A DNA stretch of 64,000 nt from positions 2,565 to 66,564 of the forward strand of contig CAZRHI010000001.1 of NCBI GenBank assembly GCA_964599945.1. Direction: 5' to 3'. A program made the translations under genes and the position numbers. Origin of the DNA: an uncultured Acetobacter sp. GTDB taxonomy: Bacteria > Pseudomonadota > Alphaproteobacteria > RF32 > CAG-239. The notes under the pieces were generated by a model. The model ran no database searches. It had not been told where the DNA came from and worked only from the letters and a program-made list of their open reading frames with translations. How positions within the stretch are numbered: position 1 is the first letter of the stretch; every line of letters begins with the position of its first letter. This document shows positions 1,273-64,000 of this stretch, in pieces.

Positions 1273-1289
1273 CCTTGCGCTACTTTTTT

Positions 1290-2667: not shown

Positions 2668-2678
2668 CAATGGTTTTT

Positions 2679-16429: not shown

Positions 16430-16462
16430 TTTTTAGTGTTGCATATTTATAGAAAAGCCCCA

Positions 16463-16492
16463 CATCTAATGTGGGGTTTTTAGATAAATACC
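16463..16492. terminator. bidirectional rho-independent terminator between recF and gpsA
   Basis: ccccacat-ctaa-atgtgggg hairpin flanked by T-runs on both strands. Confidence 0.6.
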
Positions 16493-16511
16493 TCATAGAA
16501 ACGGCAGTTTT

Positions 16512-17486: not shown

Positions 17487-17602
17487 AACTACGTTCCTTT
17501 ACAAATAAATATTTTATAAAGTGTAATTTATGATGCATTTGCCCACTTGGCAAACCAAGTTTATAAGAAATTAACAGGGAAACAACTTTTCTAGAAATAT
17601 AT

Positions 17603-18022: not shown

Positions 18023-18028
18023 GTGGTT

Positions 18029-19354
18029 TTATTGTGTACACCTGCTAATATTTTCGATAAAGCTTAGATTGTGCGTCTTTCCATATTCAATTCTTCCGTC
18101 TACTGGTATCGGATAACTCATCGTACACTTCCAATCTGTTATTGTTTTCAAATTATAATAGTGATTTAGACAAACACACCCATTTTTGTACAGCAATTCA
18201 CCGAAGAACTGAAATTTTCGAGATCTAATGTCTTGTATAACCCCCACCAACATATAGGCCAATAAAACAATTCCATAAAAACGTATAAATTTGTATTTTG
18301 AGAGAGCTAGAACCATCAGTGTTGTAGGTACTAATATAAAAAATGTTTCATTATGCCGTATATAACTAAATGCATAGGAATATACTTCCCCGCCCCGAAA
18401 CGCTACAACACCACATACACAAAACAATATTCCAAAGATTATGCCCCATAACGATTGTTCTTTCTTTATTTTATATCGTTCAAAAAAGACTATACCCAAG
18501 ATTGAAAAGTGAACTACCATTAAAAACAGACAGATTCTTGCATTTAATACAGATGCTAGCCAGAAAGCCCCCATACCATTTATTATGTAAAATGATAAAT
18601 TATGCAGATACACCATTGTAAATGTCGAATGGACAAGCTTTACCGTTATAAATCGTCTTATATTTGTTACTTGCATTAAAAATGCCACCAATATCAACAT
18701 TGTACATAAAGCTATTAAGCATTTAAAGATTGCCTCTAGTTTACCATTTTCTTTGGCATTTACTATCTCTTTAATTATGTATGCAAGCATTCCACCGATG
18801 GCCAATGGTATATTCATGGAAATTACACTCAAGAACAAGCAAACACTCATGATATATGGGCTATATTTTGTATCATCTTTAGTAAACCCCACATATATTG
18901 CCAACAAGAAAAACAATATAAAAGTATGTGTTTGAACCAAAACCGCCCACAACCAATTATATCCCAACATAGGAGTTAATAATATACATAAAAACAGAGG
19001 ATAATATGGAACAGGCTTGCTTTGTGCTTTTTTCAATATCTCATTATAAATACATATCAACACCAGATATACACCAAAATTTGTAAAAATAAAATCGCGC
19101 AAATTCCAATCGCTCAGTTTATACATAGTTTCAGATATAACAAAATAAAAGAACTGCATATTTTCATTGTAAAAATTAAACACGTGCGCAACGTTTCCGC
19201 GCGGAAGCGAATCCCAAGTATCCCAGAAAGGAATGTCAAAGGCATATTCATACAATACAAAAATATCATATATTGCTAACAAAACAAAGATTAAACAAGA
19301 AAACAGAAACATTTTATTTTTTAACATATATACCTCTTTTATATATTTTCTCAA
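18029..19354 (-). CDS. polytopic integral membrane protein (possibly Wzy/O-antigen-polymerase-like or glycosyltransferase-like)
   Basis: 441 aa with at least 10 aromatic-rich hydrophobic helices. Function is not assignable from sequence. Confidence 0.4.
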   Translation of the reverse strand: MRKYIKEVYMLKNKMFLFSCLIFVLLAIYDIFVLYEYAFDIPFWDTWDSLPRGNVAHVFNFYNENMQFFYFVISETMYKLSDWNLRDFIFTNFGVYLVLICIYNEILKKAQSKPVPYYPLFLCILLTPMLGYNWLWAVLVQTHTFILFFLLAIYVGFTKDDTKYSPYIMSVCLFLSVISMNIPLAIGGMLAYIIKEIVNAKENGKLEAIFKCLIALCTMLILVAFLMQVTNIRRFITVKLVHSTFTMVYLHNLSFYIINGMGAFWLASVLNARICLFLMVVHFSILGIVFFERYKIKKEQSLWGIIFGILFCVCGVVAFRGGEVYSYAFSYIRHNETFFILVPTTLMVLALSKYKFIRFYGIVLLAYMLVGVIQDIRSRKFQFFGELLYKNGCVCLNHYYNLKTITDWKCTMSYPIPVDGRIEYGKTHNLSFIENISRCTQ

Positions 19355-19412
19355 ATTTTATCCAAGCTAACACTATTTTCAACTTTATTGCTTTTCTTAT
19401 ACAAAAAAAATG

Positions 19413-19441
19413 TTGACTTCGTAAAATATTGATTTTATAAA
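19413..19441 (+). promoter_or_regulatory. sigma70-type promoter of rpmH
   Basis: TTGACT (19413-19418), a 17-nt spacer, then TATAAA (19436-19441), about 70 nt upstream of rpmH. Confidence 0.55.
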
Positions 19442-19511
19442 GATGAAACAAACCGAGAGGTCCCCGTGTGGTGTGCCTTTAAATAAATAACTAATTAACC
19501 GGAGATTCATT

Positions 19512-19646
19512 ATGAAACGTACATATCAACCAAGTAAACTCGTTAGAGCTCGTCGCCACGGTTTTCGTACTCGTATGGCTACAGCTGGTGGTCGTAAAGT
19601 TTTAGCTGCTCGTCGTGCAAGAGGACGTAAAAGACTTTCTGCATAA
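19512..19646 (+). CDS. rpmH: 50S ribosomal protein L34
   Basis: Manual translation gives [44 protein letters not shown] (44 aa). This ORF is absent from the track because it is under 60 aa. GGAG ribosome-binding site upstream. Confidence 0.9.
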
Positions 19647-19649
19647 GCT

Positions 19650-20051
19650 TTGATTCATATGACAAAAATACTTACTTTTAAAAAAAGAAAAGATTTTTTA
19701 AGAGTCGCCCAAGGTTCTTATATTGCTACACACAATATGGTCCTTCAGGCGACTCCTAGTTTATCTGAAACAAGTGATATTTTTGTTGGCTATACTGCTA
19801 CAAAAAAGATTGGTAATGCCGTTATTCGAAATAAAAGCAAACGGCGATTACGTTCTATTGTTACTGAAGTTTTGAGAAACTACGCTTTGCCGAATATTGA
19901 TTATGTTTTTATTGCGCGTAAATCTACTGCTGAATGTAATTTTCAAGAGTTAAAAAAAGACACAATTTATGCCTTAAAGAAGATTAACAAAAATTTCATC
20001 CCCTTACCAAACGCAGGAGCGATTTCCACTGATGAAAAAGGCATATCGTGA
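19650..20051 (+). CDS. rnpA: RNase P protein component
   Basis: Small basic protein immediately after rpmH with a conserved RNR-like KRRLR motif. Confidence 0.8.
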
Positions 20052-20304
20052 ATTGGTAAAAATCTTAGGATCTTTAGCCATTTTTTTTATTAAAATCTAT
20101 AAAAGAGCAATATCTCCCCTTTTACCATGCGCTTGTCGTTATACCCCTACTTGCTCGGAATATATGATTCAAGCTATTCGCATTCATGGAATCTGGAAAG
20201 GTGGTTATTTGGGAATTAAACGGATTTTTAGATGCCATCCATGGGGTGGTTGCGGAAACGACCCTGTCCCTCCCCCTTCTAATACTGATAAAAACACGGA
20301 TTAA
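20032..20304 (+). CDS. yidD: membrane protein insertion efficiency factor YidD
   Basis: Conserved [10 protein letters not shown]...CHPWGG motifs. Confidence 0.85.
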
Positions 20305-20393
20305 ATTCTTATAAAGCTTTACAATAAGCCTTTTTTATATTAGAAAATGATAGATATTTTGATTACTTATTTTATTTAGGAGAAATTTTAGGA

Positions 20394-22061
20394 ATGAAAG
20401 ACGATTTAAAATCATTATCTCTTGCGATAATACTGTCTTTTATGGCAATCTATTCGGTAAATTATTTCTTTGGGATTAACAAAAAAAGCACTGTTCAACA
20501 ACAACTTATTGAAATAAAAAACAGTATAGAAGAAAATCATAATTTATCTAGCGAACCTATTTTAAAAAACACAGATGAAGCATTAAGCGAAGATGACAGA
20601 CTTTCTTTCCAAAATAACTCTATTCAAGGCTCTATTCGTTTGAAAGGTGCAAGATTTGACAATCTTTCTCTTTCAAAATATAATGAAACCCTTGATAAAG
20701 ATAGTCCTAAAGTTGAGTTATTGAAGCCTAAAGATACTAAAAATCAGTATTTTGCCGAATTTGGCTGGCTATCTCTTGATAAAGAAATTTCTCTTCCTTC
20801 TGCAAACTCTGCATGGGACAATGTTAATGGAAATAGTCTTTCTCCCTCGACACCTATTACTCTTGTGTGGAAAAATCAAGAAGGGCTGACTATTTTGCGT
20901 AAAATTTCCATGGATAATGATTATCTTTTTACTATTGAAGATACTATCGAAAACAAAACGGGACAAGATATTGATCTTTTCCCATATGCACTTATCAGCC
21001 GAAACATCAAAGATTTATTACAATCTCGCTCAGTTGTTCATGAAGGAATAAGTGGTATTATTGACGATACACTTAAAGAATTTAAATACAATTCATTGAA
21101 AAAGAATGCTAACAAAACATTTGGAACCAAAGGTGGTTGGCTTGGGTTTTCTGATCGTTATTGGTTTTCTGCTTTAGTGTTAGGAAACAATGACAAAGCC
21201 ACTGCAACGGTTAAAAACAAAGATGATGAGAATTATCAAATTGATTATTTAGGTTCTAGAGTTATTGTAGAGAACAATCAATCTTCTAGTTATCAGTATA
21301 GATTTTTCTCTGGTGCTAAGGAAATTAAACTTTTGGATAGATATAAAAAAGAAAACAGCATTCCAAAGTTTGATTTGGCTGTTGATTTTGGTTGGTATTA
21401 TTTCTTGACGAAACCATTTTTCTATATCTTAGATATTTTATACGGCTTTTTAGGAAATATGGGGTGGGCTATTTTGCTTTTTGCCGCACTTTTAAGACTT
21501 TGTATGTTTCCAGTTGCGAACAAATCTTATACTAGCATGGCCAAAATGCGCGCTTTACAGCCTAAACTTAATGATATAAAGGCAAAATATGGGGATAATC
21601 AACTCCTTATCCAACAGGCAACAATGGAACTTTATAAACGTGAGAAAATTAACCCCGCTTCAGGATGTTTGCCATTGTTTATACAAATACCTATATTTTT
21701 CTCCTTGTACAAAGTGCTTAACTTCTCTTTAGAGATTCGTCATGCTTCATTTATCGGGTGGATTAAAGACTTGTCTGCCCCTGATCCATTGACAATTTCT
21801 ACACTTACACATCTTCCTTTGCCTGCATTTATTGATATTGGTCTTTGGCCTATCTTTATGGGATTTACAATGTGGATTCAGCAAAAACTTAACCCCGCTC
21901 CTGCAAATAAAGAACAGGCTCGTATGTTTGCTTTACTTCCTGTATTTTTTACCTTTATGTTAGGACATTTTGCTGCGGGTTTGGTTATTTATTGGACACT
22001 AAGTAATATTCTTTCTATCATTCAACAAAAGGCTATTATGCGCAAAAATGGAGTTAAATGA
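20394..22061 (+). CDS. yidC: membrane protein insertase YidC
   Basis: 555 aa with an N-terminal transmembrane segment, a large periplasmic domain and a C-terminal five-TM insertase core. Confidence 0.9.
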   Translation: MKDDLKSLSLAIILSFMAIYSVNYFFGINKKSTVQQQLIEIKNSIEENHNLSSEPILKNTDEALSEDDRLSFQNNSIQGSIRLKGARFDNLSLSKYNETLDKDSPKVELLKPKDTKNQYFAEFGWLSLDKEISLPSANSAWDNVNGNSLSPSTPITLVWKNQEGLTILRKISMDNDYLFTIEDTIENKTGQDIDLFPYALISRNIKDLLQSRSVVHEGISGIIDDTLKEFKYNSLKKNANKTFGTKGGWLGFSDRYWFSALVLGNNDKATATVKNKDDENYQIDYLGSRVIVENNQSSSYQYRFFSGAKEIKLLDRYKKENSIPKFDLAVDFGWYYFLTKPFFYILDILYGFLGNMGWAILLFAALLRLCMFPVANKSYTSMAKMRALQPKLNDIKAKYGDNQLLIQQATMELYKREKINPASGCLPLFIQIPIFFSLYKVLNFSLEIRHASFIGWIKDLSAPDPLTISTLTHLPLPAFIDIGLWPIFMGFTMWIQQKLNPAPANKEQARMFALLPVFFTFMLGHFAAGLVIYWTLSNILSIIQQKAIMRKNGVK

Positions 22062-22696
22062 TGACTGACGAGCAAATTCAACAAGAACGTTTTAAAAAGG
22101 GAATTGCGTTATTTAATAAAAAATGTGATTTTGTCTTGAGTGTCGCAAACCTTAAACAACTTCCTGCTGATAATCTTCAAGAAATTGCCTTTGCAGGACG
22201 TTCTAACGTTGGCAAATCCAGCTTGATTAACGCTCTTTTTGGGCAGAGAAAACTTGCTAAAACTTCTTCAACCCCTGGGCGTACACAACAACTTAATTAT
22301 TTCAACCTTGATAATCAGATTTATGTGGTCGATTTGCCCGGGTATGGATTTGCTAAAGCACCTAAAGAAATCGTCAAAAATTGGCAAAATTTAATTAACA
22401 CTTACTTGGTGGGAAGAGCAAATTTGCGACGTGTTTTTCTCTTAATCGACTCTCGCCATGGCATTAAAAAAATTGATGAAGAGATTATGGATATGCTTGA
22501 TAAGGCTGCTGTTACCTATCAGGTTGTGCTAACAAAAATTGATAAAATTAGCAATATTGAGCTTGAGAAAACATTGATAGCGACACAAAGCATTCTAGCA
22601 AAGCATACGGCTGCGCATATAACTATTTTAAAAACAAGTTCTGAAAAGAATCTCTTTCTAGATGATTTGAAAGCCGAAGTTGCTGAATTACTTTAG
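22058..22696 (+). CDS. engB: ribosome biogenesis GTPase EngB/YsxC
   Basis: G1 motif GRSNVGKSSLINAL and a DLPGYG switch motif. Confidence 0.85.
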   Translation: MMTDEQIQQERFKKGIALFNKKCDFVLSVANLKQLPADNLQEIAFAGRSNVGKSSLINALFGQRKLAKTSSTPGRTQQLNYFNLDNQIYVVDLPGYGFAKAPKEIVKNWQNLINTYLVGRANLRRVFLLIDSRHGIKKIDEEIMDMLDKAAVTYQVVLTKIDKISNIELEKTLIATQSILAKHTAAHITILKTSSEKNLFLDDLKAEVAELL

Positions 22697-52256: not shown

Positions 52257-54710
52257 TTATCCTCCTAAACCATCTAAGTACTTCGTTACGAAACCATCTT
52301 CTCCATATTCTTTTACCAATTCATCAACCAATAAAACGTTTTTAATACCCGAATTATAAAGTTTAAGATATGGTCCTATTCCACCCAAATTAACATCTAG
52401 TACGACAGACTCACCCTCACCATTTTCCCCTGCGTCAGGACGCTTTATCAAAATCGCATAAGGGCAATCTCTATACGAGCGACCACATATAAAATTGTAC
52501 TCACTATCTGTTAAATTCCATTTTGCATAAGACTCTGGAGTTGCTTGTGTATTGCGGAAAAATATCATAGTTTTACATTGCCCACGTACGGCATCTCCAA
52601 CGCCTAAATCATCTACAATATTTGGTTGTTGGAAAGCACATAAATAGGCCTGACGTTTTTTACGCCCTTCTTGCAAACCCTTAATAAACGCATCTCTAAA
52701 CATTTCATGCTTTAACATTGGGGCGGTTTCATCTATCATAACCAATGCTGGCGTACCTGTTTCAGTACTTTCTGATTGGATACGATGCATAATATAGCTA
52801 ATAGATGCCGCTGCTAATGTTTCATCATCAAATATTTCTGTAAAATCAAACGCCACAAAACGATTTGTGCTTAAATCCAAACTATCATGTTCTGCATTAA
52901 AAATGTTACCATATTGATCTGGATTTACCCAGCGGAATAATTCTCTACGCATATTTCCTGTTGGAGAAAAGCAACTTTTATATAAATTGCTTAATACTCG
53001 CTCTTCTGGCTTGAGATAATCAAATGCTGTTGTTACTGCTCGGGCAGACTCTCGTTCGGAAAGAGCATCTGAAGACATTGTAATCGCTTTTAACCAATTT
53101 CGCAAGAAAGCTCGGTTACTTAATGTATCTCGCGTATCAAATGGATTTAATGAAACATTTTTTCGTTCTCCACTAAAACCCACATATGCTCCTTTAACGG
53201 TATGGGTAAAGATTTCTGCACCACGGTGGCGGTCAAAGAAGTAAACTTTCAAATCTCCATGGCGCATAGCTTGTCCTGCTAAAAATGTCAGCAATGTTGT
53301 TTTACCTTGTCCTGTTGGTCCAACAATACAACAGTGTGCCACCGCTGACTCGGCTGCGGAAATATGGAATTGGAAACGATATGGCGAACCGCTCATGGTT
53401 CTGAATACACTAATTGCACCTTCACCCCAGTCGCTCCGTGGCAAACCTGTTGATAGTTGTTCAAAAGATACAGCCAGCGATACTATACGGGATAGGTAGA
53501 AATATGTTCTACCGCACATATCATACCCAGGGAATTGGTTGAAAAATGTCGCCTGAGCTATCCAGTTTTCACGAACAGGAGTAACACTAAACAAACGACA
53601 AATACGTTGAATCTCACTTTCTCCAAACAGCACTTCTTCCAAGGTGTTCCCTTTTAATATGAAGCTCATAGAATATTCGATAAGTGATTGGTGATCTGCA
53701 TCGCTATCTTCGATTGCTGACAATGCTTCACTATATTGCGCAACTACATCACCTGAAAAACTTGTTACTTCTGCCATTTTTTGTTGTTGAACAAGTATAG
53801 CTCTTGCTTTGGGCTTAAACAATGGGTGGATATGATGCAATAATGTTAACTCACAATCTATTGACAACAACGCGGAAACCATATTCTCGTCCATATAATC
53901 ACCAGAAGTTCTGATGCCCATTGTTAAAGCGTATTTTTCCTTTTCGCCAGAAAAAAACTTTATTATTCCCTCTTCTCCTGTAAAGTGAATACCATCTGCG
54001 GTTAACATCTCTTTGAGTTGGAAACCTTGCGCTCCTCGTATTTTGGGTTTAGGATTACTTATTGGATTTAAGATGCGTACAAAAGGATATATCGGACTTA
54101 GTTCTGCAGGAGTTTCATCATCTTCAAACAGAACTTTAACCCCATAATCATTTAAGTTTGCAATAACTGACTGCGAGGCAAAATTCAAATCTTTGACAGC
54201 CTCTTTTCTATCTTCTATTGAAATTACGATGTAATGGTCATTTTTATATACACGACTCAGATTTTCACGCCAGACATCATCGACAATTTTTAACCATTTG
54301 TTCCCAAAATCATCTTTATTTTTTTCCATTGGAACACGTTCTCTTATGGTTATGACACGACAAGTTATCTGCAAATCCGCCATATTGTCTAACCATGCTT
54401 TACGGGCCTCAAACATAGATAAAATAGTTTCTTCTCTCGCGGACGTTAAATCCACACCTTGGACTTTAAAAACACGTACATATGAACCATTACTACAACG
54501 TAATGTTGACCCATCTGACAACAAACAATCAAACGGCAAAAAATCCGCAACACGAGACTCTCTTGGTTGAGGAAGAATCCATGTTCCCACTTTGGAAACT
54601 AGCGTAACAATTATTGCTGTCGCCATTATGATTCCCAAAACTGCAACAAGAGCTTCAGAGCTTTGCAAGCCCTCTCTAAAGAGTGTATAAAAATCAAAAT
54701 TAAGGTTCAA
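52257..54710 (-). CDS. virB4: T4SS ATPase VirB4/TrbE/CagE
   Basis: 817 aa, Walker A GPTGQGKTT and a Walker B region. Overlaps virB3 by 11 nt. Confidence 0.9.
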   Translation of the reverse strand: MNLNFDFYTLFREGLQSSEALVAVLGIIMATAIIVTLVSKVGTWILPQPRESRVADFLPFDCLLSDGSTLRCSNGSYVRVFKVQGVDLTSAREETILSMFEARKAWLDNMADLQITCRVITIRERVPMEKNKDDFGNKWLKIVDDVWRENLSRVYKNDHYIVISIEDRKEAVKDLNFASQSVIANLNDYGVKVLFEDDETPAELSPIYPFVRILNPISNPKPKIRGAQGFQLKEMLTADGIHFTGEEGIIKFFSGEKEKYALTMGIRTSGDYMDENMVSALLSIDCELTLLHHIHPLFKPKARAILVQQQKMAEVTSFSGDVVAQYSEALSAIEDSDADHQSLIEYSMSFILKGNTLEEVLFGESEIQRICRLFSVTPVRENWIAQATFFNQFPGYDMCGRTYFYLSRIVSLAVSFEQLSTGLPRSDWGEGAISVFRTMSGSPYRFQFHISAAESAVAHCCIVGPTGQGKTTLLTFLAGQAMRHGDLKVYFFDRHRGAEIFTHTVKGAYVGFSGERKNVSLNPFDTRDTLSNRAFLRNWLKAITMSSDALSERESARAVTTAFDYLKPEERVLSNLYKSCFSPTGNMRRELFRWVNPDQYGNIFNAEHDSLDLSTNRFVAFDFTEIFDDETLAAASISYIMHRIQSESTETGTPALVMIDETAPMLKHEMFRDAFIKGLQEGRKKRQAYLCAFQQPNIVDDLGVGDAVRGQCKTMIFFRNTQATPESYAKWNLTDSEYNFICGRSYRDCPYAILIKRPDAGENGEGESVVLDVNLGGIGPYLKLYNSGIKNVLLVDELVKEYGEDGFVTKYLDGLGG

Positions 54711-54990
54711 ATTTGTGTCCTTTCACCTTGTATAAATTTGTTGTTACAACATTTGTATTACCAAAAGCCTGCAACATTCCTGATAAATGCGGATCTTTTG
54801 TACCTAAAGCAACAACAACAAGGTGTCCTAACACGATTGTCATAATAAAAATTAAGGGGTTTGTTTGCCAGATACCAACACTCATAAACATAAATGGAAT
54901 CTGTAATCCTGCGTTTAGGGCTGTTGGCAAAACTGGTCCCCAAAACAGTTTTGGTGGATTAGCTACCGCTTTTAGAATTATATCTCTCAT
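54700..54990 (-). CDS. virB3: VirB3
   Basis: 96-aa membrane protein with the conserved PPKLFWGPV region, directly upstream of and overlapping virB4. Confidence 0.75.
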   Translation of the reverse strand: MRDIILKAVANPPKLFWGPVLPTALNAGLQIPFMFMSVGIWQTNPLIFIMTIVLGHLVVVALGTKDPHLSGMLQAFGNTNVVTTNLYKVKGHKFEP

Positions 54991-55074: not shown

Positions 55075-55482
55075 CTATCGACCGAAACTACTATTGCCTT
55101 TTGATGACTTCGGTACTTTCATATCTCCTGCTTTAGGTTTTATTGTTTCTTGGTATGTATCTTTAAAATTGTATACAAGTTCTTGGTTTCCGCCTTTAGC
55201 ATAAGTTATGAGCGCGCCCATACCTGAAAGAAAGAATAAACTGATGGTGATGTATCCCAAATGTTTGAAGTTGATTTTGCCACAGATAGCTAAAAATGTG
55301 AACATCACCATACCAAAACCAGAAATAACATATGCTAGTTTACGAAGGCCTTCTGCAAACCCGCCAGTTCTTTGAGCTATATCATGGAAAACACCTGCTT
55401 TAGCGGCATATGCATCATTGCACAATAAAATAACAACTAAAGCACAACATAGACTTAAAATATATTTACATCTTATTGACAT
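55075..55482 (-). CDS. virB2: VirB2/TrbC pilin paralog 1
   Basis: Signal peptide plus two hydrophobic helices, about 135 aa. Likely start MSIRCK...; the upstream extension in the tracked ORF overlaps the neighbouring gene and is not credible. Confidence 0.65.
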   Translation of the reverse strand: MSIRCKYILSLCCALVVILLCNDAYAAKAGVFHDIAQRTGGFAEGLRKLAYVISGFGMVMFTFLAICGKINFKHLGYITISLFFLSGMGALITYAKGGNQELVYNFKDTYQETIKPKAGDMKVPKSSKGNSSFGR

Positions 55483-55492
55483 GACAATTCTC

Positions 55493-55831
55493 CTAGTTTC
55501 CACCCATAATATCAGCTGGAATTGAATCAACAGCATCTGGAGCAAACATTTCAACAAACATTACACAAGAACTAATTACAACTAATCCAACAACAATAGC
55601 TGTTAACCATTTCCAGTTAATATTACCAAAAAAGCCACCTATACACACTGCAATAATTCCCACTGCAGAAGCTGGATATATAATTTCTCGTAAACCTGTA
55701 AAAATATCCTTTCCTGCATCTGTTAAGGCTGTAAAATGTTCTCCGCCAGCCCAAGCCAAAGTAGAATAGCACATAACAAAAGCTACAGTTAAGCTGATAA
55801 TGATACTTTTTTTATTATTAAACTTGCACAT
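55493..55831 (-). CDS. virB2: VirB2/TrbC pilin paralog 2
   Basis: Likely start MCKFNNKK..., signal peptide plus two hydrophobic helices, about 112 aa. Confidence 0.65.
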   Translation of the reverse strand: MCKFNNKKSIIISLTVAFVMCYSTLAWAGGEHFTALTDAGKDIFTGLREIIYPASAVGIIAVCIGGFFGNINWKWLTAIVVGLVVISSCVMFVEMFAPDAVDSIPADIMGGN

Positions 55832-55927
55832 AATACCTATTCCTCCCAAGTTATTGTAATTATTATAGCACAAATATTAAAAATATTCCAGTAAAAAGAC
55901 CTTTTCCGTACTTTAAATAACCATATG

Positions 55928-55956
55928 ATTTAATTATTTTTTTATCTTTGTAACAA
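55928..55956 (-). promoter_or_regulatory. sigma70-like promoter of virB2 paralog 2/1 (and possibly the downstream operon)
   Basis: On the minus strand: TTGTTA (55956-55951), 17-nt spacer, TTAAAT (55933-55928). Preceded by the conserved motif GTGAAATTTTTGTTACA, which is shared with the promoter at 56512-56540. Confidence 0.5.
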
Positions 55957-55985
55957 AAATTTCACACTTATTTTTTATACAAAAA

Positions 55986-56013
55986 CACCCTCTGTGATTT
56001 AACACAGAGGGTG
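55986..56013. terminator. hairpin terminator after virB2 paralog 3
   Basis: caccctctgtg-atttaa-cacagagggtg perfect 11-bp stem with T-runs on both strands, 20 bp downstream of the stop at 56035. Confidence 0.6.
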
Positions 56014-56034
56014 CTTTTGCGTTTTATCAGGTTA

Positions 56035-56412
56035 TTAGCTACCGCTGCTAGCTACATCACCCTCACCACTGTTAACAAAGGTATCAACAATGTCGTTAGA
56101 GTGTTGATCACCACCCATTTGAGCACCAGTTGCGTAGTTAACGATTGTACCAGCTGCAGCCAAGATAGCAAGACCTACTGCAAGACCTGCAAACCATGTC
56201 CATTTAACTTTTCCGAAGATTGCTTGGAAGGCAATACCCACTAAACCAAAACCACCTACAACGAAAATAATCATTTTTACATGGTTGAAAATTCTTACTG
56301 CTTTACCAGCAGCAACATCCATTACGCTTTCAGCATGAGATGCATCTGCGAACAATACTGTAAATACTAATGCCAATGAGCAGAGTATAAACATTTTCTT
56401 TAAGTTTCTCAT
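56035..56412 (-). CDS. virB2: VirB2/TrbC pilin paralog 3 (likely the major pilin, own transcription unit)
   Basis: 125 aa, signal peptide and two hydrophobic helices with a Gly-rich C-terminus. Flanked by its own promoter and terminator. Confidence 0.7.
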   Translation of the reverse strand: MRNLKKMFILCSLALVFTVLFADASHAESVMDVAAGKAVRIFNHVKMIIFVVGGFGLVGIAFQAIFGKVKWTWFAGLAVGLAILAAAGTIVNYATGAQMGGDQHSNDIVDTFVNSGEGDVASSGS

Positions 56413-56511
56413 TTTAGTTCTCCTAAAAATTCATTACACATTATTACTATACAATAAATAGCAAAAAAAATCAAGCTTTTCGGCTCACCCAGAACACAAG
56501 ACAAGACATTG

Positions 56512-56540
56512 TTTATAAACAAAATTATTTCCTGTAACAA
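56512..56540 (-). promoter_or_regulatory. sigma70-like promoter of virB2 paralog 3
   Basis: On the minus strand: TTGTTA (56540-56535), 17-nt spacer, TATAAA (56517-56512). The GTGAAGTTTTTGTTACA motif is conserved with the 55928-55956 promoter. Confidence 0.55.
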
Positions 56541-56684
56541 AAACTTCACATTCAAAAACACCCCATTTTGCCCTATTATAACCATTTTATTGATAGGAGT
56601 TATACTATTTTGTTGTTATTAGTTTGTAAATCTGCTTGCCAAAGATTCTATAATGTTTAAAATAAGGTTAATATTTAATTATGT

Positions 56685-58025
56685 TTGAGGATTTTATTAC
56701 CTATGAAAGGTATGCAGGGGTTTGTTATAGGGTTTAGCCTTTCTCTGATTGGCGTGTCTTTGACTGGACAGCTACTATTTTCGACGACTATCAGTCGGTA
56801 CACTCCCGTAGCTCAGCGCAACACTCAGATTGAATTATTTAAAAAAAGGTCAACCCCTCAACTAATTCCGCATAATGCACAAATTTTTGCAAGCATACAT
56901 CGCGTCGCACAACCTATCACATCCTCTTCTTCAAATACCTCTTCCACAGCCAACAACATAGACGCCCCAGAAGATGATGAAATTTTAAACATCAATATTG
57001 ACGGACTTATTCCCGTGGAATACAATAACACTTCCCCAGCGCAACACGCTGAGATAACAAGCAGCGAAGACAATGATTTATCCGCAATGTTACCTTCAAA
57101 CCTTGACGATAACGATGTTTTTTACAGTAACGAATCCCCTTGGGAGGCTGTAGAAGCCAATAACAAATATGTTAAAAACAAAAACCTAATCCAAGAACTA
57201 AACACCCAGCGTATCGCAGACACAATAGAAGATGGTTTCACCATAACCCTTGAAGACAATAGCGATATATCATATAAAGTAGCAGAAAAAATTAAATCTA
57301 GTTTACTTTTCCCTATTCCTAGCGAGATTTTGAATGACGAGAATCTTGTCCCCACATTCATAAAGAAACCCACCACCACTAAAAAGGAAGAAAAAAAAGT
57401 TGTCCCTATAAAAAATATTCCCACTAAACTCTCCACTCCTCAAGAAATGGATAATTTAACAATTTTACCCAAATCGCCAGTTGTCCAAAAAGACGACGAA
57501 TCTACATCTAAAAATTTGTTAAACAGTATAACCTCATGGTTTTCCTCTCCTGACAGCAAGTCAGAAGAAAAGGCCATAAAATCCACAGAGAACGTAGAAC
57601 CTAGAACTAAAGTTACTCCCTCATATAGCAGTCAAGGAACAAATTTTCAAAGACCCGAACAAAATAATAACAATAACAACAATGAGTTCGTGAACTTCTA
57701 TAAAACATTACAAGAAACCAATGACGCTCACAGAAATAACACAATAATCCCCTCCGAGCTAAAGCTTTCTTTTCAACCAAACAGAGCAGAGATTTCTGGT
57801 CAAACACTACGTTGGCTAAAAGCCTTTTCTGAAGCCACGCAAGATGACAACACATATTTACAGATTAGGTTAGATGTTTCAGCATCAACAGAGCTACAGA
57901 GAAAGCGTCTTAACCTACTGTATACTATTTTTATGAACAACGGTGTTGATTTCAAAAAAATTGACACAGTCTTTTCTTTAACCGAGCCAAACGCTTTCAT
58001 TATAAGGACTTTAGAAACGCGATGA
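56685..58025 (+). CDS. membrane-anchored protein with a S/T/N-rich low-complexity region (unknown; first gene of the plus-strand pilus module)
   Basis: N-terminal TM (FVIGFSLSLIGVSLTG), a poly-Asn run (NNNNNNN) and a C-terminal ~80-aa domain of unknown type. Confidence 0.4.
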   Translation: MRILLPMKGMQGFVIGFSLSLIGVSLTGQLLFSTTISRYTPVAQRNTQIELFKKRSTPQLIPHNAQIFASIHRVAQPITSSSSNTSSTANNIDAPEDDEILNINIDGLIPVEYNNTSPAQHAEITSSEDNDLSAMLPSNLDDNDVFYSNESPWEAVEANNKYVKNKNLIQELNTQRIADTIEDGFTITLEDNSDISYKVAEKIKSSLLFPIPSEILNDENLVPTFIKKPTTTKKEEKKVVPIKNIPTKLSTPQEMDNLTILPKSPVVQKDDESTSKNLLNSITSWFSSPDSKSEEKAIKSTENVEPRTKVTPSYSSQGTNFQRPEQNNNNNNNEFVNFYKTLQETNDAHRNNTIIPSELKLSFQPNRAEISGQTLRWLKAFSEATQDDNTYLQIRLDVSASTELQRKRLNLLYTIFMNNGVDFKKIDTVFSLTEPNAFIIRTLETR

Positions 58026-58150
58026 TTACTATTTTTATAACTTTTATAAAAAAAATTCACAAAACGTTTTATAAATGAGGTGTTGTGCTTGAATAATTAA
58101 ATTTTAACATTTATTGTGAAACGAGATTAGATTTAAAGATAGGTCAAATT

Positions 58151-59965
58151 ATGAAAAAGATTTTTTTATTACCATTTTGTATCTCTTATGTTTGCAGTAT
58201 TTCTGCATGCGGTAGTAATTCGTATGACACTAAAGATGATGTCTTCATTTTTGACGACGAGCCTTCAGTGACTGATGCAGCAACAGATTCAGCTTCAAAA
58301 TGCGGTGTTAACGGGGTTAGCTGCAATGATAGTGCTTTGATTGATTACACACAAACCGAGGCAGATTATAGAGAATATGGAGAAAGAACTCCAAGAGACC
58401 ATCTCTACACAAAAGATGGAGCTGGCAATAATTTAGTTGCGACTATTACCCCTTCTTTAGAAGATGATATTGTTACACAATCTGGTAATCCTACTGACCT
58501 AGTAGCGAAGAAACATTTGCAAAGCGATATAATGGAAGATGTTTTGCTTGCAGAAGATGGGGATTTCTCCAACACAGACATAGACTCTTTTAAGGTGCAA
58601 CCTTTAGAGTATCGTCCTAACGTAAAAGAATCGTCTAATGTTAAAACGTCTGGACAAAAGAAGCGGTCTACAGCTTCTTATCCTGATTTGGAAGATGCAC
58701 CATATATGGGGATAGCAGGAAAAGACGACAAAAATAGTAATACTTATTCGCCAACAAAGGAAACATCATATGTTTCTGAAGTTGTGTGCGAAGGTGGAAG
58801 ATGCGAACGTATTGAGCGTAAAGTTGTTGAGACAGAAACAACCACGACAACTACTTGCCGTGGTAAAGAATGCGAATCTCGCGTTGTTTGCAAAGGTGGA
58901 AATTGCCACAATTCTTCCACATATACTGAACGTGTAGAAATTTGTGATAATGGTGATTGCCGTAAAGATTTTCGATATGAACCACTTATTACTAGTAGTA
59001 AAGAAAAAACTCGCACCGAGTACAAAGTTTCATGTAAAGGTAGTGAATGCAAAACTGCACCATTAAATTCAGAGGCAAAAGCTAAGACAAAGAACAAGGT
59101 GGTAACCACAAAAACAATAATAACGACGACAACTGAAGAAGATTCATGCCAAAGTGGTAATTGTGAATATAAGATTGTGTGTGAGAATCATCATTGCGTT
59201 AAAGAAAAAATTATCGACAAAGTAGAATACACTTCAAACGATTCAACGTTAGAGGCTAAAGTGTCTGACAAAAAGAGCAATGATTCTGTTAGATATGAAA
59301 CAATGAGTATATCTACAAAAACGAATCGTGGCGACGGTGTTGTTGAAGATAATTTTGAAAATAATAACGAGACAACTAACAAAGCTAGATCTGCTGATGA
59401 GAGAATAACTAAATATCAAACTTTTGGTAATCCGAGTACCAAAAAACGGACTGTACATAAGATAATACAAGAAAACAAGGCAAATGCACAAAATGCAGAA
59501 TACAAAGTTATCTGTGAAGGTGATTGCGATGATTTTGACAATAACAGACGTGTCGTTACTCCAGAATTCACCGAAGAATCTTTTGATATTGCAGATTATG
59601 TTGAGCCAGATAATGATGAAGTTATCTTTACGAATGTAGGGAATGAAGAAACAGTTATTAACGACGTTGATATTCGTGAAATAAAAATTAGTGATAATAC
59701 TGTTTTGACATGGGAAGCTGAAGAAGGAGAAAATTTGCGTGAATTACTCACAAAGTGGAGTGCGATGGCAGGTTGGAAACTACTTTGGCAAACAAATCGC
59801 AACTATGTGTTAAGTGCTGGTGTGATGTTTAAAGGAAAATTTGCTGATGTTAGTTCGGCTTTGGTGCGTGCTTTTGCAAGAGCGCGTCCTGCCCCAATAG
59901 CAACATATTATAAGGGTAATCGAGTTATTGTTGTTGAAACGATGGAGAATGAGAATGCGTACTAA
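58151..59965 (+). CDS. PilL-like lipoprotein with a C-terminal TcpQ-type domain and eight CxGxxC repeats
   Basis: Lipobox SISAC. C-terminal ...TWEAEEGENLRELLTKWSAMAGWKLLWQTNRNYVLSAGVMFKGKFADVSSALVRAF... matches the TcpQ/PilL domain partnered with T4b-pilus secretins. Central CEGGRCE/CRGKECE/CKGGNCH/CDNGDCR/CKGSECK/CQSGNCE/CENHHCV/CEGDCDD repeats. Confidence 0.6.
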   Translation: MKKIFLLPFCISYVCSISACGSNSYDTKDDVFIFDDEPSVTDAATDSASKCGVNGVSCNDSALIDYTQTEADYREYGERTPRDHLYTKDGAGNNLVATITPSLEDDIVTQSGNPTDLVAKKHLQSDIMEDVLLAEDGDFSNTDIDSFKVQPLEYRPNVKESSNVKTSGQKKRSTASYPDLEDAPYMGIAGKDDKNSNTYSPTKETSYVSEVVCEGGRCERIERKVVETETTTTTTCRGKECESRVVCKGGNCHNSSTYTERVEICDNGDCRKDFRYEPLITSSKEKTRTEYKVSCKGSECKTAPLNSEAKAKTKNKVVTTKTIITTTTEEDSCQSGNCEYKIVCENHHCVKEKIIDKVEYTSNDSTLEAKVSDKKSNDSVRYETMSISTKTNRGDGVVEDNFENNNETTNKARSADERITKYQTFGNPSTKKRTVHKIIQENKANAQNAEYKVICEGDCDDFDNNRRVVTPEFTEESFDIADYVEPDNDEVIFTNVGNEETVINDVDIREIKISDNTVLTWEAEEGENLRELLTKWSAMAGWKLLWQTNRNYVLSAGVMFKGKFADVSSALVRAFARARPAPIATYYKGNRVIVVETMENENAY

Positions 59966-61556
59966 AAGAAAGTGTTTGATTGGATTTGCTGGATTATTAC
60001 TGTTAGGAGTTGCGTCATGCTCTCTTCAGACAGATTTTGATGCAGCAGTAGAACGCGATGTTGATGCGACAATTAAATATAAGGAAGATGCGAAAGCTCC
60101 ACAAACTCAGGCTGATACAGATGTTATCAGAATCAAAGATGATATTTGGCTTGGCGACACAAGTGAGATTGAATATGAAGGAGATAAGCCTCTTCCGAGT
60201 TATTTGGAAACTGCAAATGGCGTAACACTTATTAGCAATCGCCCAATCACTTTGTATGAAATTGGAAATAAAATCAGCCAGATTACATCTATCAAGATGC
60301 GTTTTGCACCTCAATTAGAAGGAGCTGCTAAGGCGGCGGCTGACAAAAATATTCCAACTGTTAACAAAGTAGGAACTAGATGGGCGGATACTTCTCGTAT
60401 GCTTGTTTCATACAAAGGTTCGCTTAGTGGATTGTTAGATGAAGTTTGTTCGTATTTTGGTGTTTGGTGGAAATATGAACATGGTGAGATTTATATTTAC
60501 AAATATACCACTAAAACGTTTACATTATATACATTGCCAACTTCTCCTTCGATGACAGCTAGTGTTAGTAGCTCTTCAGGTGGTGGAAGTATAACTAGTG
60601 GTGTTTCTAGTATCGACTTATGGGGAAATATTGTAACAGCAGTTCGTTCTATGTTAGGTACAGGTTCTAGCTTAATTACAGACCCGATGAATGGTACTTT
60701 GACGATTACAGCAACACCTACAGAAATAAAGAAGGTAGCAAAGTTTGTTCATGAACAGAACATACGACTTTCTCGTCAAGTTGCTATTAGCGTTAAAGTA
60801 TTACAAGTTGAAGTTGATGAACAGCATGGTTATGGATTTGATTTAAATGCTGCATTTAAGGATCGTACTGAAAGAGGTGGCAATATTTCACTTACAGGAG
60901 TTACTGGTCCCCAAGGCTTGGTTGATGGCAACAGCAGTATTTCAATGAAAATTTTAAGTGGTGATGTTACAATCAATGCCGCGATGCAGGCTTTAGCTAC
61001 TCAAGGAACAACCACTTTAGTTACTAGTGGTACTGTTACAACAATGAATAACAAGCCAGCACCAATTCAAGTTGTAAAAAAGCAAAACTATATTTCGGAA
61101 TACACAAAGACTAACAATGGCACTATTGGTTCAGAAAGTAGCTATGACGTTACAGTTAGCACAGAGGAAATTGAAACTGGCTTTACATTAGATGTTTTAC
61201 CAAGAATTATGGACCATGGTAGATTGATGATGTTGTTTAGTTTGAATTTGTCTGACTTATTAGCTCTTGAAAATGTTAACTTAGATAGTTCAGACGAATC
61301 TGGTTATATTCAAAACCCAATTACAGAAGAAAGAGGTTTCTCTCAAGAGGTTGCATTAAAATCTGGTGAGACATTAGTTCTTTCTGGTTATGAGCGTGTA
61401 GAAACTAAGAGCAACAAGGAAGGTTTGGGTGCTGTTAACAATAATTTCTTTGGTGGAAAACAAAAACATGAAAAGAGCAGAAGCATTGTTGTTATTTTGT
61501 TAACCCCTGTTGTGTTAGAATCTCCATTATTACCTGAGTCTCGTATGAAATTTTAA
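59946..61556 (+). CDS. lipoprotein secretin of the type IVb pilus family (R64 PilN / TcpC / BfpB-like)
   Basis: Lipobox LLLGVASC. Secretin N-domain (TLTITATPTEIKKVAKFVHEQNIRLSRQVAISVKVLQVEVDE) and a C-terminal secretin domain (...VLSGYERVETKSNKEGLG...). Start is probably MRMRTKRK at 59946 rather than the tracked 59928. Confidence 0.75.
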   Translation, partial: RMRMRTKRKCLIGFAGLLLLGVASCSLQTDFDAAVERDVDATIKYKEDAKAPQTQADTDVIRIKDDIWLGDTSEIEYEGDKPLPSYLETANGVTLISNRPITLYEIGNKISQITSIKMRFAPQLEGAAKAAADKNIPTVNKVGTRWADTSRMLVSYKGSLSGLLDEVCSYFGVWWKYEHGEIYIYKYTTKTFTLYTLPTSPSMTASVSSSSGGGSITSGVSSIDLWGNIVTAVRSMLGTGSSLITDPMNGTLTITATPTEIKKVAKFVHEQNIRLSRQVAISVKVLQVEVDEQHGYGFDLNAAFKDRTERGGNISLTGVTGPQGLVDGNSSISMKILSGDVTINAAMQALATQGTTTLVTSGTVTTMNNKPAPIQVVKKQNYISEYTKTNNGTIGSESSYDVTVSTEEIETGFTLDVLPRIMDHGRLMMLFSLNLSDLLALENVNLDSSDESGYIQNPITEERGFSQEVALKSGETLVLSGYERVETKSNKEGLGAVNNNFFGGKQKHEKSRSIVVILLTPVVLESPLLPESRMKF

Positions 61557-61566
61557 GGAGTAGACC

Positions 61567-62835
61567 GTGGTTGAAGAAAACGACAATACATCATTAGATG
61601 TCTCAAAAGATGACAGCAAAGAATGGGCCGCAAGTTTTACGGTTGATGGTGTATCTTATGCCGCAAGTCTTTTTTGGGAAAGTTTGCAAAATATTGATGC
61701 CCCTTACTTAGATGCTAAGGAAGCTGCAGAAAATGTTTTAGTTGGTGCAGATTTGTTTTGCGTCAAGCACGGTAAATCTCCACAATTAGGTTTGGCTATT
61801 TCTTCTCAGGGCTTTAAAAAAGGAATGAATGTAGCCGCTTTTACAGCCGTTACAGCGATGAGTGATGCGTCTTCGCTTTTAGCAGTGTTTAAGGTTGATG
61901 CTGGTTATTGGTATTTATGCGTCAGAAACGATGTTATCCTTTCAGATGGTGATGTACTTTTTGTTAAGGAAGAAGATGCTAAAGAGCAGTTTATGTCGAT
62001 GTTATCTGTTCCTGACTGGAATAAGAAGATTGCACCAGAAGAATGGGGAATCGATGAAACCGAAATAAAAGACATCAAAGAGGTTTTGGCTAGTGGTCTT
62101 GATACAAAGTTAGAAAAAATTAACGCACTTAGAGGGTTTGAGTTAGTTATCGCTATTGTCTTACCCTTAATCGCAGCAGTATTCCTTATTAAATTTATTT
62201 CTCAAACATTTTTTACTACTCGAGTAAATGAAAATAAGGTTGTTACGCGTCGAGCGCAGAAAAAAGTTATTAAAGAAGTAGAAGAAGTTATTCCTGCACC
62301 ATGGGAATCGATGATTGACCCTGTATGGATGTTGGATAATTGCAGACAATCTATTTTATCTTTAGTAAATATTTCGACTCCTGGTTGGGTAAACACTGGT
62401 GTTACATGTTCTCAATCATCAGCAATTACATCTTGGAGGCGAGATTTTGGTCGTCTTTCGTGGATAGAAATGTCCTTGGCTTATTCTGGATTAACATTTG
62501 CTAGTAAATCTATTAGTGAACGTGGTGATGTTGTAACTGTATCTATACCATTTCAGACAGTAGAAAACATCAACTCCGCGCCAAAGAAATCTGCGGGAGA
62601 GCTACGAAATATGATAAATGACTTATTCCAAACCTTGAACTTATCTATCAGCATTGCTGATGGGCAGGTAAAAGTTGGCAATAAAATTTATGATTATCTA
62701 GACTTTGGTATAAATTCTATGTATGATCCAGAGGTTTGGAAAGAATTGTTAACAAAATTTTCAGGACTTAAGGTTAATAATATACGTTATAATCGTGGCG
62801 TATGGAATTATGAGGGGACAATTTATGTTCAATAG
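61567..62835 (+). CDS. PilO-like bitopic type IVb pilus biogenesis protein
   Basis: GTG start with an AAGGAG ribosome-binding site. 422 aa with one central TM (LVIAIVLPLIAAVFLI). Position and topology match R64/ICE PilO, which follows the PilN secretin. Confidence 0.5.
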   Translation: MVEENDNTSLDVSKDDSKEWAASFTVDGVSYAASLFWESLQNIDAPYLDAKEAAENVLVGADLFCVKHGKSPQLGLAISSQGFKKGMNVAAFTAVTAMSDASSLLAVFKVDAGYWYLCVRNDVILSDGDVLFVKEEDAKEQFMSMLSVPDWNKKIAPEEWGIDETEIKDIKEVLASGLDTKLEKINALRGFELVIAIVLPLIAAVFLIKFISQTFFTTRVNENKVVTRRAQKKVIKEVEEVIPAPWESMIDPVWMLDNCRQSILSLVNISTPGWVNTGVTCSQSSAITSWRRDFGRLSWIEMSLAYSGLTFASKSISERGDVVTVSIPFQTVENINSAPKKSAGELRNMINDLFQTLNLSISIADGQVKVGNKIYDYLDFGINSMYDPEVWKELLTKFSGLKVNNIRYNRGVWNYEGTIYVQ

Positions 62836-64000
62836 AGAGAAAAAGACACTTTTGGCTTTAGCTGTTTTAGTATTATTGCTTAGCCCAAATATCTTATATG
62901 CAGAGGAAGCACCTGCTCTATCTGTTAATAGCGAGGTTTTGCCTATTAGTGTAACAGAAGCTGGGCAACAAGCAGTTTCTGCTGATGAGGATAAATCGTC
63001 CAATACGCTTGTTTCTCCGTCTAAACCAAGCACAACAGAAGATATTGCTTCAGGTGAAAAAGACTTAGCAAAAGAAGAGGTTGCTATGTCTGCAAATAAT
63101 GAAGCGTCTACGTCCTCTGAAGCTTCCAATGCAGTTGCAGAGCCTGCACCTGTTAATGATAATTTTGATTTTGATTTAAAGCTTGAAACTGTTTCTATAC
63201 CAGTTGCACCGATAGCTCCTGAGGCAAATGGCTCTGTAGCAGATAACAATCAAGTTTTAACCGATGCAGATTTGCCTAAAACTGTACAATATAAGACGAA
63301 TCCGATTGATAATTTAAGTAATAGTGTGTTATCTCAAATGGATGATGATTTATTCTCACAGATGTCTGAGATTGAAAAAAGTACAACATTGCTCACTCTT
63401 GAACTGCGTAGAGAAAAGATTCGTAATGAAATTGAAGCTCAAAAGGCAATTAGACAAAAGGCTTTTGATGATTTAGAACGTCAAAAAGAGGAAGCTAAAT
63501 TAAAAGATTTAGAAAGAAAGAAACAAATTGAGGCAAAAGTTTTAAAAGAAAAGCAAGAGCTTTTGAGTCGGCAGCAGATTTTAGAAGTATTAAAACAACG
63601 TAAATTGTTGAATGCGTATATGAACCATATGTTAGTTACTCAACAGGCGTGGCTAAGAGAAAAAGAGAGTTTGTATGGTCGTATTTCTGCGATGGAACAA
63701 GAAAAGAAAGACCTTACAGATTTGTTTAAGCAAAAAGTTGAGAAACTATTAGAAGCTTCCGCACAGAATATTCAAGCAGCAGAGGCCGCAAGAGTTAATT
63801 TTGATCGTGTAGTAAAAAGCTTGAAAGCTCGTAATGAGCAATTACGTAAGCGTATTGAAGCTGATGCAAAAATCATTAAAAACGCACAGAGTAGTTTGCA
63901 TTTGAAATCTCAATCATTGGAAGAATTACAATCTAGAAATTCCTCATTAGAAAGTGATGCAGTTCAAGCCACTGGTTCTCTCCCAAAAGATGGAAAAGAA
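62825..64000 (+). CDS. secreted coiled-coil protein (PilP-like position), 3' end beyond the window
   Basis: ATG at 62825 overlaps the previous gene by 11 nt. Signal peptide LLALAVLVLLLSPNILYA followed by a long K/E/Q-rich coiled coil. The frame stays open to the window end. Confidence 0.5.
   Translation, partial: MFNREKKTLLALAVLVLLLSPNILYAEEAPALSVNSEVLPISVTEAGQQAVSADEDKSSNTLVSPSKPSTTEDIASGEKDLAKEEVAMSANNEASTSSEASNAVAEPAPVNDNFDFDLKLETVSIPVAPIAPEANGSVADNNQVLTDADLPKTVQYKTNPIDNLSNSVLSQMDDDLFSQMSEIEKSTTLLTLELRREKIRNEIEAQKAIRQKAFDDLERQKEEAKLKDLERKKQIEAKVLKEKQELLSRQQILEVLKQRKLLNAYMNHMLVTQQAWLREKESLYGRISAMEQEKKDLTDLFKQKVEKLLEASAQNIQAAEAARVNFDRVVKSLKARNEQLRKRIEADAKIIKNAQSSLHLKSQSLEELQSRNSSLESDAVQATGSLPKDGKE

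Follow-up and report, generated by a model that had tools for sequence, protein, structure and literature searches.

A conserved chromosomal gene module of the type IVb pilus class adjoining a VirB-like type IV secretion locus in uncultured gut Alphaproteobacteria

Type IVb (T4b) pili are best known as intestinal colonization factors of pathogens (TCP, BFP, and CFA/III) and for their help in the mating of IncI and PAPI-1 elements. Those of IncI plasmids, PAPI-1, and pYR4 are linked to a type IV secretion system (T4SS) (PMC5297154, PMC9045228, PMC11429247), and in IncI and pYR4, the documented T4SS/T4b pairings that were checked, the T4SS is Dot/Icm-like (for pYR4, PMC11429247). A T4b secretin structure has been published as the BfpB-BfpG complex 9u5s, BfpG and TcpQ being N0-like partners that hoop the secretin (PMC12531336). 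Here, we describe a five-gene segment at positions 56685-64000 (+ strand) of a 64-kb chromosomal stretch (the window) from an uncultured alphaproteobacterium labeled Acetobacter sp. (GTDB lineage RF32; CAG-239), in which an earlier note, made from the sequence letters, had proposed a T4b secretin module placed back-to-back with a VirB T4SS. The homology of the parts, their order, their chromosomal context, and their conservation across species could each be demonstrated. On balance, and with modest confidence, we read the segment as half of a T4b-class pilus machine, namely its outer-membrane and alignment parts. On this reading, the machine is chromosomal and inherited vertically, likely makes a retractile adhesion or contact fiber, and possibly serves the T4SS. 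The hosts are uncultured, low-GC Alphaproteobacteria of gut and rumen samples.

IncI had been put forward in the earlier note as the classic precedent for a T4SS joined to a T4b pilus. Two other known pairings, PAPI-1 (PMC5297154) and pYR4 (PMC11429247), had been missed. No described T4b pilus paired with a VirB-like T4SS was found, an absence that applies within the literature searched and is not proof, and a search for RF32 or CAG-239 together with T4SS or pilus found no paper on the lineage. The T4b nature of the module is not new at the level of annotation, since the NCBI pipeline already names PilO2 homologs in these metagenome-assembled genomes. The locus presents a complete-looking T4b machine as a fixed chromosomal trait of widespread uncultured gut and rumen Alphaproteobacteria, head-to-head with an unusual VirB-like T4SS, and yields a concrete hypothesis for the attachment of these organisms to host or microbial cells, or for their contact with such cells.

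The TcpQ-secretin operon at the window end

The segment consists of five close-packed genes, and all ORFs were present at the coordinates reported for them by the earlier note.

56685-58025, + strand: first gene (orf446), encoding an inner-membrane anchor, a disordered linker, and an OmpA/MotB-like domain (AlphaFold2 [AF2] model, Foldseek)
58151-59965, + strand: TcpQ/BfpG-domain lipoprotein, 604 aa (PF10671, 9u5s_R, lipobox)
59928-61556, + strand: BfpB/PilN-class lipoprotein secretin, 542 aa (PF00263, TIGR02520 below cutoff, 9u5s_A)
61567-62835, + strand: PilO2 protein, 422 aa (PF06864, transmembrane segment)
62825-64000, + strand: protein with a signal peptide and coiled coil, at the PilP position and cut by the window end (translation, full-length orthologue)

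Spacing within the operon is tight, with genes overlapping or 11 nt apart (ORFs as listed); the overlaps lie between the secretin ORF as listed (TTG at 59928) and the TcpQ gene and between the coiled-coil gene and the PilO gene. On the opposite strand, 272 bp away, are three TrbC/VirB2 genes, a VirB3-like gene, and VirB4. The pilus operon is divergent from the virB2 genes, and the back-to-back arrangement with a VirB-like T4SS is thereby borne out.

The 542-aa protein, on whose recognition as a secretin the earlier note had made its reading depend, matched Pfam Secretin (PF00263) at 9.2e-18. Its best NCBIfam model was TIGR02520 (PilN-family type IVB secretin, equivalog), although the score of 255.6 bits falls under the curated cutoff of 287.65. 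In the Protein Data Bank (PDB), BfpB (9u5s_A) was the sole sequence match at an E value of ≤0.001, aligning over nearly the full length (residues 60-531) at 2.3e-46. The closest annotated relatives are PilN proteins of conjugative plasmids, with approximately 30% identity. The N terminus carries a lipobox (GVAS|C), and the start codon is likely the ATG at 59949 or 59955. Judged from its sequence, the protein is a lipoprotein secretin of the BfpB/PilN (type IVb) class.

The 604-aa protein encoded upstream of the secretin matched Pfam TcpQ (PF10671) at 1.8e-16 over residues 520-596, the C-terminal ∼80 residues, and this domain also matched the BfpG chain (9u5s_R) of the BfpB-BfpG complex at 9.1e-11. 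A lipobox (SISA|C) is found at its N terminus. The intervening linker contains eight CxGxxC repeats with Thr-rich runs between them (58151-59700), and it makes the lipoprotein hypervariable in length: compared with the 604 aa found here, orthologues of 412, 378, 271, and 256 aa occur in other species, and the linker itself ranges from ∼170 to ∼520 residues. The 422-aa protein matched PAP_PilO (PF06864) at 8.4e-13, and its homologs are named "type 4b pilus protein PilO2" by NCBI. It has a single central transmembrane segment (193-211) and is therefore predicted to be bitopic in the inner membrane. Against PDB sequences, it gave TAL-repeat matches only, which came without a matched stretch and were discarded as spurious. 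Thus, the Secretin, TcpQ, and PilO profiles that the earlier note had proposed for checking all matched; together with the BfpB and BfpG matches, they confirm a pair of TcpQ lipoprotein and lipoprotein secretin of the type IVb class. With profile matches far beyond chance, that observation stands.

The two outer genes of the segment are less familiar. In the product of orf446, a long disordered linker joins a transmembrane segment at about residues 8-30 to an OmpA/MotB-like domain at the C terminus; the protein had no match in Pfam or NCBIfam. It belongs to a family of 982 proteins, none of which is listed with a functional name or Pfam domain; the few source names all read "hypothetical protein." The AF2 model shows an N-terminal transmembrane helix and a C-terminal beta-alpha-beta-alpha-beta-beta domain at a pLDDT of 85-90, for which the best Foldseek matches were the peptidoglycan-binding domains of OprF, Pal, MotB, and SiiA (probability, 1.0). 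These matches point to a MotB-like architecture, and the modeled protein is probably the wall anchor of the machine, tying it to the cell wall. Conservation of the Met at residue 7 suggests that the true start of orf446 is at 56703. The ORF from 62825 encodes a signal peptide, a low-complexity region, and a coiled coil; in relatives, the protein is 495-526 aa long and ends in a conserved C-terminal domain. Scans of Pfam and NCBIfam gave no family match for it. Homology with the PilP-position protein of an E. coli plasmid was considered and rejected, as BLASTP returned coiled-coil noise only. An OmpA/MotB-like first gene and a long coiled-coil protein at the PilP position are parts unseen in the annotated T4b clusters compared.

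Continuation in related loci and the pilin-like protein

Exact-sequence look-ups of the secretin, TcpQ protein, and PilO of the window matched no record. Parts of the locus 3′ of the window end were read from orthologous loci in relatives, for which one genome per species was scanned. This gave 32 loci with a secretin 74-90% identical to that of the window, all in uncultured or metagenome-assembled alphaproteobacterial genomes. Their NCBI labels vary (Alphaproteobacteria, "Acetobacter sp.," Rickettsiales, and Rhodospirillales), and gut or rumen (colon, rectum, rumen) is given wherever a title states the source. The relatives are probably members of the GTDB order RF32. Among the full-length loci, L002 is the closest, with a secretin 90% identical, as in the fragment L032. 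In L002, the order is a 513-aa coiled-coil protein, a 554-aa T2SSE ATPase, a 371-aa T2SSF platform protein, and a 219-aa protein matching Bundlin, followed by a convergent gene for a 323-aa ATPase and then the ATP synthase F0 genes. The 554-aa ATPase had its best PDB match in BfpD (6.1e-93, versus 2e-47 for GspE), the platform protein matched T2SSF (PF00482) at 8.1e-26, and the best matches of the 323-aa ATPase were PilT retraction ATPases (3.5e-21). The earlier note had proposed that the operon may continue past the window, where it expected a pilus ATPase, and the orthologous loci do show one in the PilQ position, with a platform gene in the PilR position.

Conservation of this layout was scored by tblastn over the related loci. 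The extension ATPase (85-96% identical) and the platform protein (85-93%) were found in 29/29 loci extending downstream. The pilin-like gene was found in 28 loci and is merely 39-53% identical across species, and the PilT-like ATPase lies between it and the atp operon in 23.

The pilin-like protein encoded after PilR matched Pfam Bundlin at 4e-6, and a profile built from 28 orthologues had bundlin as its sole match in the PDB (E value, 0.0027). In its AF2 model (pLDDT, 91.4), a long alpha-1 helix precedes a beta-sheet. Type IVb major pilins (CofA, TcpA, and PilS of S. Typhi) made up all of the 12 best Foldseek matches, and the rest were noise. Two invariant cysteines are held by the orthologues at the expected site of the D-region disulfide. 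This protein is a true T4b pilin homolog.

When compared with the BFP system of enteropathogenic Escherichia coli (EPEC; BfpG, BfpB, BfpC, BfpD, BfpE, BfpF, and bundlin), the lipoprotein secretin and its N0-like partner match BfpB and BfpG, the extension ATPase is nearest BfpD, the second ATPase is PilT/BfpF-like, and the subunit is bundlin-like with a T4b fold. The differences are several. The module is chromosomal in a commensal-type gut alphaproteobacterium, its N0-like partner is a lipoprotein too and has a long linker of variable length, and the module includes PilO2 (Pfam PAP_PilO, defined by Pfam for plasmid-type systems), the additional OmpA-like first gene, and the ∼500-aa coiled-coil protein. 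The locus also lacks the BfpP peptidase, BfpH, and minor pilins, and its subunit lacks Gly(−1)/Glu(+5). In gene order, the module follows R64/IncI and PAPI-1 (PilL-like [TcpQ], PilN, PilO, PilP position, PilQ, PilR, and PilS position), and it shares with them the physical linkage to a T4SS and homologs named PilO2 and PilN by NCBI. It is, however, only ∼30% identical to these systems, with a secretin under the TIGR02520 cutoff, and no PilV adhesin, shufflon, PilU peptidase, or PilT transglycosylase was found here. The partner T4SS is VirB-like, unlike the Dot/Icm-like system of IncI, and no relaxase or coupling protein is nearby; nor is the module on a mobile element. The T4SS of PAPI-1 is usually classed as the genomic-island type. 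The T4b clusters of the plasmids E. coli p786605_3 (CP091397) and Bosea pBSY19_1 (NZ_CP016463) have the same core order as the module, taken as TcpQ, secretin, PilO2, a small or unknown protein, ATPase, T2SSF, and second ATPase. The best plasmid match to the ATPase of the module was that of Bosea pBSY19_1, at 35% identity. A PilV adhesin is encoded in the Bosea cluster, and the E. coli cluster includes canonical prepilins together with a lytic transglycosylase and a peptidase, whereas the module has none of these.

Chromosomal context and the weighing of rival readings

The window also holds recX, recG, mfd, fpg, dnaA-dnaN-recF, gpsA, rnpA, yidC, and engB, and in relatives the other flank of the T4SS/pilus block is the atp operon. 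Given the origin-proximal gene set, the block lies ∼10 kb from dnaA. GC content is uniform across the window, the pilus module included. The locus is collinear in about 30 species: virB2a adjoins orf446 in 29/29 loci reaching upstream, and virB3 and virB4 are in place in 27/27 with enough sequence. A sister clade (46% identical in PilO, 58% in the secretin, and 68% in VirB4) keeps the head-to-head arrangement, although its right flank has changed (thioredoxin, addAB). The PilT-like ATPase has stayed with the module in this clade and is thus part of it. In a third clade, represented by L036 (278-11201; 44% identical in PilO and 51% in the secretin), the same pilus operon is found, including the orf446 homolog and the coiled-coil protein. 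Since no virB genes accompany the module there, it is an autonomous unit; its junction with the T4SS locus is a trait of two clades, within which it is stable.

In the machine that we favor, the lipoprotein secretin and its TcpQ/BfpG-type partner would, by homology, form an outer-membrane channel with a BfpG-like hoop. The orf446 product, anchored in the inner membrane, would couple the machine to the cell wall through its OmpA/MotB-like domain, as its fold and topology suggest, and PilO2 and the coiled-coil protein, by fold, topology, and position, may connect the channel to the inner-membrane platform. Homology in the orthologous loci suggests that the BfpD-class ATPase would drive fiber extension on the T2SSF platform and that the PilT-like ATPase would pull the fiber back. 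The subunit would be either the noncanonical pilin homolog, processed by another route, or a canonical pilin encoded elsewhere. From these assignments, we infer filament formation, retraction, and cooperation with the T4SS. The fiber could serve adhesion, aggregation, and contact in gut colonization, and it may bring a target surface to the adjacent T4SS, by analogy with the conjugative T4b pili in IncI/PAPI-1 transfer (PMC5297154, PMC9045228, PMC11429247). The composite organelle suggested in the earlier note may exist, but the L036 clade has the module with no virB genes alongside.

Several observations weigh against such a fiber. An unprocessed type IV pilin is unlikely to polymerize. The prepilin (PilS) that the earlier note expected is represented in the orthologous loci by a protein of type IVb pilin fold, but the class III signal is absent from it in 28/28 aligned orthologues, which are without Gly(−1), a hydrophobic stretch at +1 to +4, and a fixed Glu(+5). 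In its place, ahead of the hydrophobic helix, is a cytoplasmic N-terminal extension of variable length, which is helical and comprises ∼57 residues in the main clade, against ∼23 in the sister clade. A regular expression for canonical prepilin N termini identified none in the window and the loci of seven relatives, versus five in a control E. coli T4b plasmid. A prepilin peptidase (PilU) was likewise expected nearby. Peptidase_A24 matched none of the window ORFs of ≥90 aa (≥50 aa beyond 50 kb) and, in L002, L033, and L036, nothing over the downstream 10 kb; lytic transglycosylases and minor pilins were likewise absent from the window and the downstream 10 kb. Five species (L020, L025, L026, L027, and L028; about 17800-18400) lack the PilT-like ATPase gene, and retraction may thus be dispensable or lost in them. 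Finally, in L036 an integrase-like gene takes the place of virB2, there are no adjacent virB genes and no PilT-like ATPase, and the noncanonical pilin-like gene is followed by a convergent gene for a canonical T4b prepilin (QSGR|SMIEML…).

The last of these loci also bears on the others. As L036 has a canonical prepilin and no local peptidase, the peptidase can be encoded elsewhere, and its local absence is weak evidence. The noncanonical gene stands beside the canonical one there, and its product may therefore be a conserved accessory rather than the fiber or major subunit; the genome of the window may have a canonical pilin gene at another site. An exhaustive profile search with the pilin-like family gave 134 cluster representatives at an E value of ≤0.001. 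Relatives at 1e-39 to 1e-24 share the noncanonical N terminus, and distant ones have textbook leaders (…GRSMVEML…, …RGFSLIELL…), including the canonical pilins encoded directly after the platform gene in L039 and L041. Loss of the class III signal is thus derived. The locus offers a natural test of a basic rule in pilus assembly: should the noncanonical homolog be the fiber subunit, prepilin peptidase processing is not needed in every case, and should it be an accessory, this T4b subfamily has a conserved component that is new.

Other explanations of the N terminus were considered and set aside. A "leaderless pilin" in the sister clade was rejected because the gene as called gains ∼15 residues when read from an in-frame ATG located 2 nt past the stop of PilR; the ∼23-residue extension is counted from that ATG. 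For the main clade, an internal start giving Glu at +5 fails, as the position is Val in one sequence and Lys, Ile, or Gln in others. The protein is also a poor candidate lipoprotein (Cys78), with a poor "lipobox" and the Cys missing in L017 and in the sister-clade relatives. Among the distant loci, L041 carries four tandem pilin-like genes after the platform gene (836-3508), three of them matching Bundlin/PilS, and L039 carries one canonical pilin gene followed by a co-oriented PilT-like ATPase gene (4675-6054).

The T4b pilus could be functional and its adjacency to the T4SS meaningless, the two being independent machines kept together by low rearrangement in small genomes. We regard this as a serious possibility, if a less probable one. 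The L036 clade has the whole module with an integrase-like gene where virB2 would be, the PilQ/PilR/pilin sets of L039 and L041 are on short contigs showing no virB gene, and the intergenic 18-mer TGTAACAAAARYTTCAYA is also found upstream of virB2b, so that it does not look like a shared operator. Set against these are the head-to-head layout, kept in all 29 loci and in the sister clade despite its changed other flank, the maintained intergenic length, and the linkage of T4b pili to a T4SS in IncI, PAPI-1, and pYR4 (PMC5297154, PMC9045228, PMC11429247). It is unlikely, in our estimate, that the module is an exapted T4b-like system without a conventional pilus, in which the pilin homolog would be membrane-anchored or otherwise processed and the machine would act as a secretion or piston device or as a joint apparatus with VirB. 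The derived loss of the class III signal would fit such a device, as would a peptidase and canonical prepilin not found locally, a neighboring T4SS without recognizable VirB6 or VirD4 in the window, and the strong constraint on both ATPases. Yet the noncanonical protein is paired in L036 with a canonical prepilin and no local peptidase, showing that peptidase and major pilin can be elsewhere, and the T4SS has outer-membrane parts of its own, VirB9 and VirB10. Similarly doubtful is a prepilin-peptidase-independent device co-inherited and co-regulated with an expanded VirB-like T4SS as one contact-dependent apparatus against host or neighboring cells; the VirB-like partner in question carries giant proteins with beta-flower repeats, and neither VirB6 nor VirD4 is encoded near it.

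The remaining alternatives had both been raised in the earlier note and are largely refuted. A captured conjugative module, that is, the thin pilus of an integrated IncI-like or ICE element, is very improbable. The nearest annotated secretin relatives are indeed PilN of conjugative plasmids, and the gene order is that of plasmid T4b clusters, but identity to plasmid PilN is only ∼30% and the GC content is like that of the rest of the window. No match to relaxase, VirD4, or integrase families was obtained among the scanned ORFs of the window and flanks, and no tRNA gene, PilV, or shufflon was found there. The dnaA/yidC/engB and atp flanks and the collinearity in ∼30 species contradict capture as well. 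A type II secretion system (T2SS) or competence module in place of a pilus is more improbable still. Secretin, ATPase, and platform families are common with T2SS, and there were weak NCBIfam matches to GspE and GspF; however, the best matches were T4b-specific throughout (BfpB, BfpG, BfpD, PilO2, and the bundlin/TcpA/CofA fold). GspC, GspL/M, pseudopilins, and ComEA/ComEC were unmatched in Pfam and NCBIfam among the scanned ORFs, class III N termini are absent, and a PilT-like ATPase is present.

The neighboring T4SS and the divergent intergenic region

The features upstream of the pilus operon are as follows.

56413-56684, between the divergent operons: control region of virB2a and the pilus operon, 272 bp (length and conserved blocks in the alignment)
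56607-56663, + strand: conserved block ATTTTGTTGTTATTAGTT, then a sigma-70-like promoter (TTGCCA, 16 nt, TAAAAT) for the pilus operon (promoter scan, alignment)
56035-56412, − strand: virB2a, the first of three TrbC/VirB2 pilin genes (PF04956 at 9.7e-9)
55493-55873, − strand: virB2b (PF04956 at 8.5e-9)
55075-55557, − strand: virB2c, its real start probably internal to the ORF (PF04956 at 8.1e-4)
54700-54990, − strand: VirB3-like gene (by size, one transmembrane segment, and position only)
52257-54710, − strand: VirB4 (TIGR00929 at 6.1e-111, PF03135)

The T4SS genes detected were VirB2 (three), VirB4, VirB8 (two), VirB9, VirB10, and VirB11, all under the NCBIfam equivalog cutoffs. No polytopic VirB6-like ORF or VirD4 was recognizable in the window. 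The composition of the T4SS region (22693-56412, − strand) is very unusual. VirB10 is 1425 aa long with TrbI and beta-flower domains, VirB9 is fused to a SPOR domain, and a 3151-aa protein with beta-flower, DUF3659, and RHS-type repeats is encoded between virB9 and virB10. A further protein of 1683 aa is without a transmembrane segment and without a family match; having no transmembrane segment and no Pfam match, it was ruled out as a large VirB6. Farther along the window, the origin-proximal set (dnaA-dnaN-recF, gpsA, rnpA, yidC, and engB) is at 12433-22696, and GC skew tracks the coding strand. Among the housekeeping genes, three ORFs of 139, 441, and 365 aa (17603-19354 and 2679-3776, − strand) are without a Pfam match.

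The divergent region is 250-290 bp long in 25/27 related loci, and an alignment of 26 intergenic sequences (the window and 25 loci) revealed strongly conserved blocks. The promoter scan gave 10/12 matches at 56636-56663, a promoter-like arrangement directed toward the pilus operon. The block ATTTTGTTGTTATTAGTT is conserved across loci and occurs once in the window. The 18-mer TGTAACAAAARYTTCAYA is present in two copies, one upstream of virB2b (55949-55966) and one upstream of virB2a (56533-56550), where 0.02 would be expected by chance, and both copies are held in place in 14 related loci. Given the copy at virB2b, the 18-mer resembles a promoter element of virB2 more than a shared operator, and it is likely a promoter or regulator site for the virB2 genes. 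Co-regulation of the pilus and T4SS operons is plausible. At 55980-56019, immediately past the stop codon of virB2a, is a hairpin that is near-perfect, with arms of 17 nt, a loop of 6 nt, and a T-run on the − strand. It resembles a terminator or attenuator separating virB2a from virB2b.

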